Source: Microthyrium microscopicum
Taxonomy: Eukaryota
Direction of reading: 5' to 3'
DNA: 64,000 nucleotides
Assembly (NCBI GenBank): GCA_010405405.1
Contig: MU004244.1
Coordinates: 499,895 to 563,894 of the forward strand
Both the position numbers and the translations under genes were made by a program. Positions within the stretch are counted from its first letter, which is position 1. Each line of letters begins with the position of its first letter. The notes under the pieces are model-generated. The model made no database searches and had not been told where the DNA came from. It worked only from the letters and a program-made list of their open reading frames with translations. Below are positions 18,673-22,831 of this stretch, in pieces.

Positions 18673-19235
18673 TATGTTTACAGACATTCACCCATCGACC
18701 CATGAATCTTCAGCTTCAAGCCTTTCCCAGCATAATCCAATATATCCGTACACGTAGGTACATACCATGGGAAGCTCAATATACTAGCCGCATATGCTAG
18801 TGACGTGCATATTAACAGCGCGATAGCCATCTATATCACCGAAAGCACCGACTGCGCACGCAAGGATACGCGTCCAGCAACATCAGGGCTAAATGCACAA
18901 GCAAAACAAAAACATCACAACAAGTAAACAATTGAAGATCAATCACAGATAGGGCACACGATTTTTTCTAAAGAGCAAAACTCCATTCCATTAACTATGC
19001 ACATGACTCAAACTACACTGTGATCCAAACTGCTTTCCTTCGATTAACAATAAGGGGCTGATGGGGCAGGTAGGTGAGCCGTGGTTCTGTACGGGTTGAA
19101 AAATGTAACACGGGAAAAGTGTATGCACATTCTGGCGGTGGGGAAACTTTACAATGCCACCTTGATTGCGATTATCTGGAATGAGAATTAGTTATGTTTG
19201 CATGAGTAGTGATGAAGTGAGCTTACCAGTTGCAT

Positions 19236-20821
19236 TTACAAGCGGGAGCCGTGAACGATCTTGTAGTCGACGCAGAGCTCACGTCCCTCATCGGAAAGGA
19301 CAAGGACGCGAATGCTACCACGACCATTGTCGAACGAGTCAGAAAGACGGGAGTACAAGCCGCTCTGGTCAAGAACTGGGAGAGCCTGCTTGACATCACC
19401 AGTCTCAGTCATGGCGACAATGCATCCGTCATCACGGATATCGAGCACGCGGTATTGCTTGAAGACCGGGCCCAACATGTTCTGGACAATGACGGATGGG
19501 GCAGGGTTGGAGATGAAGGAAGATTCCTCGTGAAGTTGCTTGGTGAACAAGTCAACACCGAGGTAACGGTGCTGGCCAGTCTGGGACGAGGTGGTGATGC
19601 GGATGACCTGGCAAGGGCGGCCCTGCAGGATCAAGAGATCGCCAATGCGGATGTGGTGGCATGGGATGGTGATGGTGTTTGGAGAGGCCATCTTTTCGGC
19701 TGGTCGGATGGGTGCTGGGGCGCAGTTGACACGGTCTGAGCCTCGGGGGATGGAAACTTTACGTTCTTCGACGGTGATTTCTTGACGGGAAGATTCTTCA
19801 CCGGCGTGAGAGTGGGCGTGGTGGTGGTGACGGAGGGAGGGTCCGTGGATGGGGTGAGCGATACGTTCAGCTACGCGTTGGACACCACGTCGGAAGGAGT
19901 GGTAGTGGCCGTCGTCGTCGTAGTATCCCATATCACGCTTGAACTTGCGGGGGGAGTCGACGGTGGTGGAAGAGGTTCGTTCTTGGGTACGAACTTGCTC
20001 TCCTCGTCGGGGGAATTCGGGTGCAGAACCTCCTAGGCGAGAGGATTCTTGACGATGGACTTTTTCAGAAGAACCAAAGCGTTGCTCGGCAGGACCAGCA
20101 GCGATGGGACTAGTTCGTTCTCGGAATTGACGTTCAGTGGTGTCTAGGTTTGCAGACTCAAAGCCACCGGCAGCAATACCGACACGTCCAACTGGGTTAA
20201 AGTTGCGGTCGTAGGAGGTATCACGAACGTCGAGTTGAGAGTCGACGTACTTTTGATAAGGTTCTTGATATCTGTTGGAGGGTGGTACAGTCAGTTGACT
20301 ATTCCAAATGGGTGTGAAGAAAAGGGAAGAGAAGGTTGAAAGGTGGAAAAGCCAAAGAAAAATATACACATCAACAAACCCAGCCACGGACCGACACACG
20401 GACGTTGCCAAGCGCCAATGGGAATAGGAGTAGGAATTATGTCTCAGACTTACCGCTCTCTGGAAACTTGAACACGGCGGGAAACGCGCTCTTCAGGAAA
20501 TCGCTGTGGCTCGGGATAACGCTCAGAAAGACGTTCACGTTCAGTGATTCGAACTTCTTCGCGAACTGGACGGCCTTGAGGGTGTTCTTCGCGAAATTCT
20601 TGGTGGATGCGCGTCTCCTTGCGATCGAAACGATCTTCTTTGCCTTGGGCGGAGGAAGCGGTATAGCGGGCTTCGTGACCTTCCCGTCCGACGCGCAAAG
20701 TCTGGTCGAGTAGGTTTGTTTCTCCCTCTACCTTGACTTTTTCAGTTTCTGTGGTAGCGTCACTCCGGTACGAGGACGGGAAGACACTGAAGGGGATCGG
20801 GACGCGGGCGTCAAAGTCCAG
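19236..20821 (-). CDS. HEX1: Woronin body major protein HEX-1: AUG isoform from 19931 (231 aa) and putative CUG-initiated long isoform from 20821 (467 aa)
   Basis: MGYYDDD...TITIPCHHIRIGDLLILQGRPCQVIRI...HGSRL* (eIF5A-like fold, PTS1 SRL). An upstream in-frame exon at 20821-20454 joins through a GTAAG...CTGAC...CAG intron at 20453-20272. Confidence 0.92.
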
Positions 20822-21252
20822 GTTGCCTGGAGTCGCGGCGTTCCTTCTTGAATGCCTCCTGAAAACAAGAGGAATACAAGAAAGAACTTTCTGGCTCCAA
20901 AAGTGAGACCGAGAAGGTTCAGAGGAAAAACTGGGCTGTTAAAAGTCGCGCCAGTTTTGAAATTGATGAAAAGACCGAGTCGAAGACTGGTAAGACAGAG
21001 TTATGCAATAGCAAGAACTTGGTGAAGCAATGGAGCAATGGGAAGAGATGTAGATGGTGAGGGGAAGAAGATGTAAAGGCAAGGTGAGTTGTCAGCGGGG
21101 AGAGGAAAGGAGACAACAAAGAGGAGAGCGCGCGGGAGAGGGAATCCAACGAATGCTCAGAGATTGTGGATTGGGATTGTTGTGGAACGGGGAGAAGTCT
21201 GGTGGCTGGAGACTGCAGCTGTTGGCGAGCCTTTTCTAGCCTGCCGTGTTTG

Positions 21253-21258
21253 TTTATA
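21253..21258 (-). promoter_or_regulatory. Putative TATA box of hex-1
   Basis: TATAAA on the minus strand, followed by a CT-rich tract typical of fungal core promoters. Confidence 0.5.
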
Positions 21259-22831
21259 TCCTAATCTGGCTAGGCGCTATCTTGGGAGAACCCCTGCATT
21301 GGTCGCCAGGGCCAATCTGATCGCGGCGGTCTGCTACAGCTTTTCCATATTGAATTCGAATCAGTCGCGCCATTCTAATCTATACTCTACGCGATATCGC
21401 CAATTGCTACCGTATCAGTTTGATTCTCATCAGGAAAGTATGTGTTGTTGCTCTGGACACCATGCATGAAGCTTTGAGTTGATCTTGAGCTTTTGAGCGA
21501 CTCTCACGCGATGAAAACCATCACTGACCTTTGCTGGTCTCAACCACGCTTCAAACATTGAACAATCCGTATTGTAAATAAATTACGAGTTCCCTACACT
21601 TCAACTCCACAGATCCACCATTTCCGTTCGTGGACCTGCTCAATGGCTGTTGTTGACGTCCGCAAAGCCATGAGTGGCCGCCTTCTCAACAAGCACAGTC
21701 CAGAAATCCCAGCTCACAACAAGCTCTCGATGCAGCTGGCGCCAGCCTCTCCAATTTCCTCTTGACATGCTCATTGGTCCCGACGCGCCAGCTTTCGTTA
21801 GTGCGGGAGAGTTGCTTGGGCAGCGCTGCAAAGCTGCCCTGTCAGACTCTGAGATCTGCTTATTCTGCAAGGGTCTGGGTGCTTCAGGGAGCAAGCTATT
21901 CCATGCATGTTGCATGTGTTTTGCTGTGTTGTTCAAAAGCTTCTGCATCTTCTGCACGTTGTGAGCTTTATGCCGAATCAATTGCATGCTTTATTGGAGA
22001 GGCGGGAAGCTTTATACAGCTTAAGTCGGCCGATTGGTGAATCGTGTTTAAGAAGGTTGGGATTATGCTGTTCGACATGTCTAACTTCACATGTCGTTGA
22101 ATGTAAGCTCGGAAGTTGGAGCTTGGTGATTTGTTGGGACCGAAACAGCTCCTGAACCACGCTCGTTCTTTCCAATATCAAAATCAATTTGCCAAGTATA
22201 ACAGGTGCTTTATTATGAACAACTACACTCACAACGTTTTCCATTGACATGTTCCTTGTAATTTGGGGCAAGATTCTGGTTCTGTGTATCATAAGAGCTC
22301 AGAAAACTCCCTTTGACGATGAGCTCTGCCACGACGCTTTGCGACAGAAAAGGCTCTCATTCCCATCCAGTGAGATCAATATCGATGGGAAGCAAAGTAG
22401 TCACTCTTTGACAATGGTTATGGCAGACATCGCGTTTGATGGGAATACTATCCACGAAGTACGGCTACCTCATCTTGACACCAGAGAAGGCAACTCTACA
22501 CTCAGTTCATATACCCACTCCTCTCGGAATGACAGGCACGGAGATATTTATGTTGACGATAATATGGTCTTCGACAGATGATCAATGACCATATAAATTC
22601 GACCTAAAGACAAGCAACCTTATCAACAAAAATTTCCTCAGCCTTGGGTACTAGTACGAATTACAAACATCATAGAGAAATACGATTGTGTGCCTTATCA
22701 AACCAAACGCTGTCTTCTCTTCGGCCTATGTCAAGAAACACACTCCGTGTGGGACTCTCCATCGCCCAATCTCAAAAGAGCCTTCACTAATCAACACCTG
22801 TGATATTGTCTCACATCAATCTGGAAGCGAG

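Follow-up and report, generated by a model that had tools for sequence, protein, structure and literature searches.

Where does translation of the major Woronin-body protein begin? The question is raised by the hex-1 (hexA) gene in a 64,000-nucleotide (nt) stretch of Microthyrium microscopicum, contig MU004244.1, positions 499,895 to 563,894, referred to here as the window; coordinates are counted from its first letter. Woronin bodies are defined by HEX1/HexA, whose transcript is among the most abundant of filamentous ascomycetes. In the literature examined, it is treated as a 20–25 kDa protein that starts at MGYYDDD. The initial annotation of the window proposed a second, longer product, begun at a CUG far upstream in an ATG-free leader. 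Our comparison of the locus with its relatives indicates that a long HEX1 isoform probably starts at CUG 20821, and that the short form probably arises by leaky scanning to the AUG at 19931. The features of the short form, all on the minus strand, are as follows.

19236..19931, minus strand: canonical HEX1/HexA coding sequence, 231 amino acids plus stop, with PF21485, PF01287 and a match to 8qlu.
19929..19931, minus strand: AUG of the short HEX1 (MGYYDDD), in the context GAT ATG G.
19239-19247, minus strand: type 1 peroxisomal targeting signal (PTS1) tripeptide SRL at the end of the HEX1 coding sequence, common to both forms.

Judged by its sequence, the window gene is the hex-1/hexA orthologue, encoding the Woronin body major protein, of a Dothideomycete; the assignment to hex-1 follows from its eIF5A-like Pfam domains and from end-to-end alignment with solved HexA and HEX-1. 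The eIF5A-like two-domain core was found with PF21485 at 30.8 bits (cut-off 27.1) and PF01287 at 29.1 bits (cut-off 24.2). Against the PDB, the protein aligned end to end, over residues 1-231, with HexA 8qlu_A (E = 2.8e-87) and also matched HEX-1 1khi_A (E = 1.5e-77). The 231-residue product of the AUG form, encoded at 19931-19239, has the MGYYDDD start, a poly-His stretch and a C-terminal SRL. The MGYYDD hexapeptide and SRL, which PMC7762394 gives as typical of HEX1, are thus both present in the window translation, and the Met of MGYYDDD is invariant in our alignment A2. In a search with the second coding exon (exon 2), the closest among the homologues listed were Dothideomycete proteins, the top one 72% identical, with named homologues such as those from Westerdykella, Melanomma, Zopfia and Cenococcum at 55–60%.

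The frame upstream of this Met is open for a further 236 codons. Its parts, again on the minus strand, are given below.

20819..20821, minus strand: putative CUG start codon of the long isoform, in the context GGCAAC CTG GA, proposed from codon conservation.
20454..20821, minus strand: coding exon 1 of the putative long isoform (122 codons plus 2 nt), from the spliced frame.
20756..20821, minus strand: N-terminal block (L/M)DFDARVPIPFSVFPSSYRSDA, present in homologues.
19932..20271, minus strand: second part of the extension, an Arg/Glu-rich linker in the spliced frame that includes the motif TERQFRERTSP at about 20100-20159.

Spliced from CTG 20821 to the stop, the sequence comprises 1404 nt, or 467 codons, with one stop, the terminal one, and is in frame with HEX1. 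The extension contains 36 Arg and 30 Glu residues and no Met, Cys or Trp. The CTG lies in the context AAC CTG G, with A at -3 and G at +4, and an in-frame TAA is found 40 codons upstream of it. Between the two, the in-frame near-cognate codons are an ATT in poor context and three AGG, none of them better than the CTG. The spliced translation and the sequence around the CTG therefore bear out what the initial annotation had described: a stop-free, Arg/Glu-rich frame continuous with HEX-1, a CTG in strong context, and frames of 467 and 231 residues that both end in SRL. The leader holds another CTG in good context (AAA CTG G), at 20952-20954 on the minus strand, which is out of frame and opens an 11-codon open reading frame (ORF).

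We next examined the leader and the transcript that carries it, for which the following features are relevant.

21253..21258, minus strand: TATAAA box, seen in the sequence; the end of a transcript contig at 21184 lies 74 nt downstream.
18962..21184, minus strand: stretch taken as the hex-1 mRNA, from X1 contigs without both introns; the 5′ end is at or beyond 21184.
20822..21184, minus strand: ATG-free 5′ leader before the CUG, at least 363 nt, from the ATG scan and contigs.
20272..20453, minus strand: intron of 182 nt, GT..AG, phase 2, containing the sole leader ATG (20371), with its joint seen in contigs.
19176..19226, minus strand: intron of 51 nt, GT..AG, in the 3′ untranslated region, beginning 9 nt past the stop codon, with the contig joint 19175->19227.

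On the minus strand from 21298 to 19932, there is a single ATG, at 20371, and the next one upstream is at 21299. The ATG at 20371 sits within the 182-nt intron, as the initial annotation had noted, and the spliced leader before the MGYYDDD start comprises about 1.1 kb without AUG. Between the TATA box, which that annotation also placed at 21258, and position 19932 (1327 nt), this one ATG compares with an expectation of 15.5 on base composition and of 7.8 under a first-order Markov model. Other words built from the same three letters are plentiful in this interval (AGT 20, TGA 18, GAT 9, GTA 9, TAG 6). The ATG nearest upstream of CTG 20821 is 478 nt away.

Contigs from two sequencing runs, X1 and X2, were compared with the locus; that either run is RNA is a guess in its record. 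X1 contigs identical to the window skip exactly 20272-20453 (joint 20271->20454) and 19176-19226, the latter being skipped by contigs of both runs, and a T-run loose end at 18962 in one X1 contig is the poly(A) tail of a minus-strand transcript. One 590-nt X1 contig follows the genome colinearly between 20595 and 21184, with no joint at CTG 20821 or at the TTTCAG near 20859. The transcript therefore has 363 nt or more on the 5′ side of the CTG, placing its start upstream of 20821, and no ATG exon is spliced in there. Upstream of 21319 there is little or no contig cover, to which no weight was given. An ATG exon joined to that TTTCAG, which the initial annotation had named as the arrangement that would overturn the proposal, was rejected on account of this contig and of the conserved hairpin, described below, in which the TTTCAG lies.

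To ask whether the codon itself is conserved, we scanned metagenome contigs with the degenerate pattern DF[DE][AG][RK][VI]P[IV]PFSxFP, which begins one codon after the tested codon and hence leaves that codon unbiased by the search. The scan yielded at least 116 loci, of which 95 non-duplicate loci were used for codon counts. The tested codon was CTG in 91 and ATG in 4, and never CTC, CTT, CTA, TTG or TTA. As a control, the invariant core Leu in RY-L-G and in D-L-F was encoded by CTG in 6/56 and 11/56 loci, respectively, with five different codons used at each, and CTG made up 85/466 of Leu codons overall in the long ORFs. An A at -3 was present in 91/91 CTG loci (the codons at -3 being AAT 36, AAC 32, AAA 10, ACC 4, AAG 4, ATC 2, ACG 2 and AGG 1), while all 4 ATG loci had C or T there. 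The G at +4 is set by the Asp codon, which is itself part of the search pattern. More broadly, nucleotides -8 to -1 are conserved as uCGnCAAy.

Clustering by linker identity groups these loci into 79 clusters at 90%, 47 at 70% and 11 at 50%; their nearest named relatives belong to the Leotio-, Eurotio-, Dothideo- and Lecanoromycetes. A near-cognate codon in good context stands at the 5′ boundary of protein conservation, and codon, context, frame and AUG depletion are conserved in at least four classes of Pezizomycotina. One ATG locus, L107, grouped with CTG relatives at 65–70% identity. Three of the ATG loci (L063, L097 and L114) have a further ATG at -7 relative to the start, opening a 5-codon upstream ORF (uORF) that overlaps the ATG start. 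In L063, one ATG occurs between the start and the MGYY ATG, at +539, beyond the end of its uninterrupted frame. With weak context in 4/4 and an overlapping uORF in 3/4, leakiness seems to be preserved in the ATG-start loci too.

In 24 unique loci the frame runs unbroken from the CTG to the C-terminal tripeptide (390–580 codons), and all 24 of these uninterrupted ORFs have an in-frame stop 5–55 codons upstream of the CTG. When the window was aligned with 71 unique loci, 59/72 sequences showed an in-frame stop within 100 nt upstream, and 15/72 had one within 5 codons. The spacer from the conserved upstream nucleotides to the CTG varies from 19 to 32 nt, with 34, 20 and 18 of the 72 sequences in the three classes of length modulo 3. 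These nucleotides thus occur in all three phases and are not coding.

These observations bear on the possibility that the long frame starts at the AUG of an upstream exon or alternative transcript and that the CTG is an ordinary internal Leu codon. Many annotated models do have a Met upstream of the block; however, those annotated N-termini all differ. The window has no ATG from 21298 to 20372, a region that the contig crosses unspliced, in-frame stops lie 4–5 codons before the CTG in 15/72 sequences, and 23 cDNA-like (complementary DNA-like) leaders contain 1 ATG in 5,443 nt. Nor would an internal Leu stay CTG in 91/91 loci outside the ATG swaps, or exchange with ATG only. One such model, P0167, reads MPKVVN|LDF, yet in locus L030 (93% identical over 98 amino acids) a TAG stands right before the VVN codons, so that the MPK of P0167 looks like a spliced-in mini-exon. 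We regard an upstream AUG start as scarcely credible.

We then counted ATG triplets in the relatives. Not one ATG, in any frame, occurs in the 19,320 nt that separate the CTG from the MGYY ATG in the 24 ORFs, where 68.6 would be expected, and the single ATG of the cDNA-like leaders compares with about 29 expected. By contrast, the HEX core contains 217 ATG against 188.5 expected. In 24 genomic-type loci, the upstream ATG nearest the CTG lies at 135–713 nt (median 350), and further upstream the density is 19.5 per kb. That a coding stretch should lack ATG in each of its frames makes little sense unless ribosomes scan through it, a pattern that is the signature of leaky scanning, and both the spliced window leader and the 24 ORFs are free of AUG in any frame between the two starts. 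Taken together, the relatives supported three expectations of the initial annotation: that protein conservation would begin at a conserved CTG, that leaders would remain depleted of ATG and that ribosomes would reach the second start by leaky scanning.

A different route to the short form is conceivable, in which the CUG starts the long isoform and short HEX1 is translated from a second, shorter transcript that begins at an internal site downstream of the CTG. Contigs are unable to show transcript starts, and multiple transcription starts have reportedly been found for hex1 of Trichoderma reesei. However, with a separate transcript the loss of ATG in all frames would have no obvious reason unless the stretch is scanned through, and the four ATG loci with weak context, three of them with an overlapping mini-uORF, look as if leakiness were needed. 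We therefore consider a separate short transcript unlikely.

Conservation of the extension is also visible in annotated proteins. The search with exon 2 found 1247 homologues; among the best 120, which were listed, more than 100 have 313–591 amino acids and align with the query region that precedes MGYYDDD. The block (N)LDFDARVPIPFSVFPSSYRSDA was found by regular expression in 34 of these 120 and in 99 of 101 further proteins among the 120 listed matches of exon 1 alone, in agreement with the initial annotation, which had expected such a block in gene models of other Pezizomycotina. Block-bearing models come from Dothideo-, Eurotio-, Lecanoro-, Leotio-, Geoglosso-, Candelario- and Xylonomycetes, the Eurotiomycete carriers including Penicillium, Aspergillus, Coccidioides, Histoplasma and Blastomyces. 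None of the 120 listed exon 1 matches is from Sordariomycetes, where gene callers would hide an AUG-less extension.

N-terminal to the block, the gene models have nothing in common, and 'complete' models carry unrelated N-termini. By hand count, the label 'partial' is attached to 19 of the 221 listed homologues, 14 of which start at the block or immediately before it; several models trim the block itself so as to begin at a Met. Four models of 1093–1452 amino acids (P0138, P0142, P0144 and P0187) have hexA fused to its upstream neighbour, which is probably another consequence of the missing ATG.

Across 26 long ORFs, residues 1-20 (LDFDARVPIPFSVFPSSYRSDA) have a mean identity to the window of 0.88, on par with the HEX core (0.7–0.94). 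Identity is 0.14–0.48 in the linker, with a small peak at residues 161-180 (TERQFRERTSP), and about 0.5 around MGYYDDD. The consensus of this moderately conserved linker motif is QIDVTERxYRxRTxP, and residues 144-160 of one related ORF, L013, are predicted to form a short helix with a predicted local distance difference test (pLDDT) score of about 70. In loci L018 and L044, block and core are kept and the linkers are very different, one long and His/Gln-rich, the other Ser/Lys/Ala-rich.

Could the region before MGYYDDD be an untranslated leader conserved purely at the RNA level? A conserved RNA hairpin is indeed present in it. In contrast, variation shows codon periodicity beyond the part fixed by the search pattern (positions +45 to +57), the frame is open for hundreds of codons and keeps phase at lengths of 390–580 codons, and the exchange of CTG and ATG falls exactly at the first conserved codon. 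A purely untranslated leader is very unlikely on this evidence.

The hairpin itself is located as follows.

20843..20884, minus strand: two-tier RNA hairpin, its 3′ side ending 21 nt short of the CUG, minimum free energy -18.4 kcal/mol, with covariation.

From 20884 to 20843 it folds as CUUUCUUG-UAUU-CCUCUUG-UUUU-CAGGAGG-CAUU-CAAGAAGG (z -5.0), and the TTTCAG near 20859 forms its loop and 3′ arm. RNAalifold recovered both helices from the 72-sequence alignment, across which the hairpin lies 19–32 nt upstream of the CUG. For the 14 specified pairs, 95.5% of cells in the 72 sequences are paired, compared with 41–67% when the partners are slid. Compensatory two-sided changes occur in 6 of the 14 pairs (29 cells), and the covariation score was reached by 0 of 500 shuffles. 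Rfam gave 0 matches at E <= 1 over 18900-21400 on both strands, so the hairpin fits no described family there. Two peptides that recur upstream of the block in many gene models, FERHSRKDA and KAFEKGR, are two reading frames of this nucleotide element. The hairpin may modulate scanning, serve as a protein-binding site or localise the mRNA. A hairpin downstream of the CUG that would favour its recognition was also considered and rejected: RNAalifold gave a 4-bp (base-pair) invariant helix after the CTG without covariation, on which we do not rely.

With a conserved hairpin so close to the start, the extension might be translated chiefly for regulation, the nascent peptide and hairpin setting the number of ribosomes that arrive at the HEX1 AUG, with the long protein as a by-product. 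The contrast between the first ~20 codons (0.88) and the rest of the extension (0.14–0.48), together with the position of the hairpin, is what such a role would predict. However, the frame stays open and in phase with HEX1 over 200–360 variable codons in 24/24 ORFs, and a regulatory uORF needs none of this. Third codon positions of the block vary, pointing to constraint on the peptide, an observation compatible with the regulatory role and with the two-isoform model alike. We judge a chiefly regulatory extension decidedly unlikely.

A bolder combination, which we hold to be quite unlikely, would treat N-terminal peptide, CUG and hairpin as a translational switch. The first CUG-initiated ribosome would pause at the proline-rich RVPIPFSVFP, at about codons 7–15, and its trailing edge would stop the scanning complex behind it at a point where the P site of that complex covers the CUG, raising CUG use. 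Such queuing is known to raise near-cognate use in the upstream ORF of the antizyme inhibitor mRNA. The ratio of long to short HEX1 would then follow elongation conditions, for example the supply of eIF5A or polyamines, and the long form would also link the lattice of the Woronin body to membrane or septum. HEX1 descends from eIF5A, which makes an eIF5A-responsive ratio notable.

We used AlphaFold to model L013, which is 69% identical to the window long form, from 48 aligned sequences. Residues 1-142 have pLDDT <50, compared with 80–97 in the core, giving some support to the disorder that the initial annotation had proposed for the extension. The Pfam scan of exon 1 returned no family, its PDB sequence search gave a chance match only (E = 1.5), and the best ESM Atlas score for it was 0.77, to an unnamed ascomycete cluster, which is uninformative. 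In this model, the extension appears to be a disordered tether of variable sequence that carries an invariant peptide at its N terminus, and any function for it is one that we infer.

The two-isoform model, in which CUG 20821 is a leaky start for the long form, would work as follows. Transcription would begin a short distance past the TATA box, at 21184 or further upstream. Scanning ribosomes would first pass the hairpin at 20884-20843 and reach CUG 20821 21 nt later, where a fraction would initiate, presumably with initiator methionyl-tRNA (Met-tRNAi), and make the 467-residue isoform. This would consist of the invariant ~20-residue peptide, a variable, disordered Arg/Glu-rich linker of ~215 residues and the full HEX1 core with SRL. 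Ribosomes that skip the CUG would meet no AUG in any frame until 19931 and would make the 231-residue HEX1. From these features we infer use of the CUG in vivo, Met at residue 1, an isoform ratio in which the CUG form would presumably be minor, and a function. The long form might co-assemble with the short form through the HEX core, its tethered N-terminal peptide binding a Woronin-body or septal partner or limiting lattice growth; in this way, the extension might control crystal size or tethering.

Several points weigh against this model. PMC7762394 describes two small isoforms of HEX1 that result from alternative splicing immediately after MGYYDD, and ascribes 'hypervariable N-terminal extensions' of HEX1 to inaccurate annotation. 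Solved structures begin at MGYYDDD, and the long form may be rare, or produced only under certain conditions, if it is made at all. A few annotated models put an ATG 4–10 codons before the block. AlphaFold gave no fold for residues 1-142 of L013 and hence no structural support for a function. The loci are interrelated and were chosen for having the block, so the sample represents lineages that carry the extension. X1 is not recorded as RNA, and its contigs leave room for another true 5′ end and for rarer spliced or shorter transcripts. Overall, the comparisons and the transcript contigs lend strong support to the reading of the initial annotation, in which a CUG start is probable.

Elsewhere in the window, an X1 contig skips 57 nt with GT..AG ends at 22370-22426 on the plus strand, ~1 kb upstream of the hex-1 promoter, which points to a spliced neighbouring gene.

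If the two-isoform model is true, most classes of Pezizomycotina make a second HEX1 about twice as long as the first, and the makers include Aspergillus, Penicillium, Onygenales, lichen fungi and many plant-associated Dothideomycetes. The invariant peptide would be an obvious candidate for what connects the HEX crystal to partners on the membrane or septum, a link so far missing, or for what controls the growth of the crystal. The model would also explain hundreds of hexA models that are 'partial' or have arbitrary N-termini, and would offer a simple rule for their correction. As a natural case for the study of translation it would be unusually clean, with one CUG, an invariant A at -3, ATG as the only swap, ~1 kb without an AUG in any frame and, close by on the 5′ side, a conserved hairpin.

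How does this arrangement compare with known systems? The short form in the window resembles the described HEX-1/HexA proteins (1khi, 8qlu, 8qnu and 8qlw) in its eIF5A-like domains, MGYYDDD start and SRL. Whereas those forms begin at MGYYDDD, the window frame has 236 residues before that Met and a putative CUG start; and whereas the intron of the described isoforms lies just after the MGYYDD start, the window intron lies inside the extension. The full-text literature searched, with subscription journals outside its coverage, contained no report of a non-AUG-initiated HEX1. Non-AUG N-terminal extension combined with leaky scanning is a known kind of mechanism, which in HEX1 has apparently been overlooked.

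A work by Kremp et al. of 2020 is said, by its title, to concern peroxisomal isoforms of fungal 6-phosphogluconate dehydrogenase made via non-AUG initiation. Going by that title, in both cases a fungal protein related to peroxisomes has, or would have, an isoform that requires a non-AUG start. They differ in that the non-AUG start of the dehydrogenase creates, again by title, the peroxisomal isoform, whereas both HEX1 forms share the same C-terminal PTS1. The HEX1 extension must therefore add something other than import.

The closest precedent, to which the initial annotation had also pointed, is cpc-1 of Neurospora crassa, for which Ivanov et al. 2017 describe near-cognate starts of an N-terminal extension conserved in Pezizomycotina (PMC5487733); hex-1 is not mentioned in the main text of that paper. 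Within the same text, the CPC1 extensions share with hex-1 a conserved, AUG-less, in-frame extension and near-cognate codons in good -3/+4 context. However, cpc-1 is described there as having several candidate codons, which are conserved in 73–98 of 100 species, and a leader with AUG uORFs. Unlike cpc-1, hex-1 has a single CUG at the exact boundary of conservation, a leader that is AUG-free throughout and ATG as the sole alternative codon.

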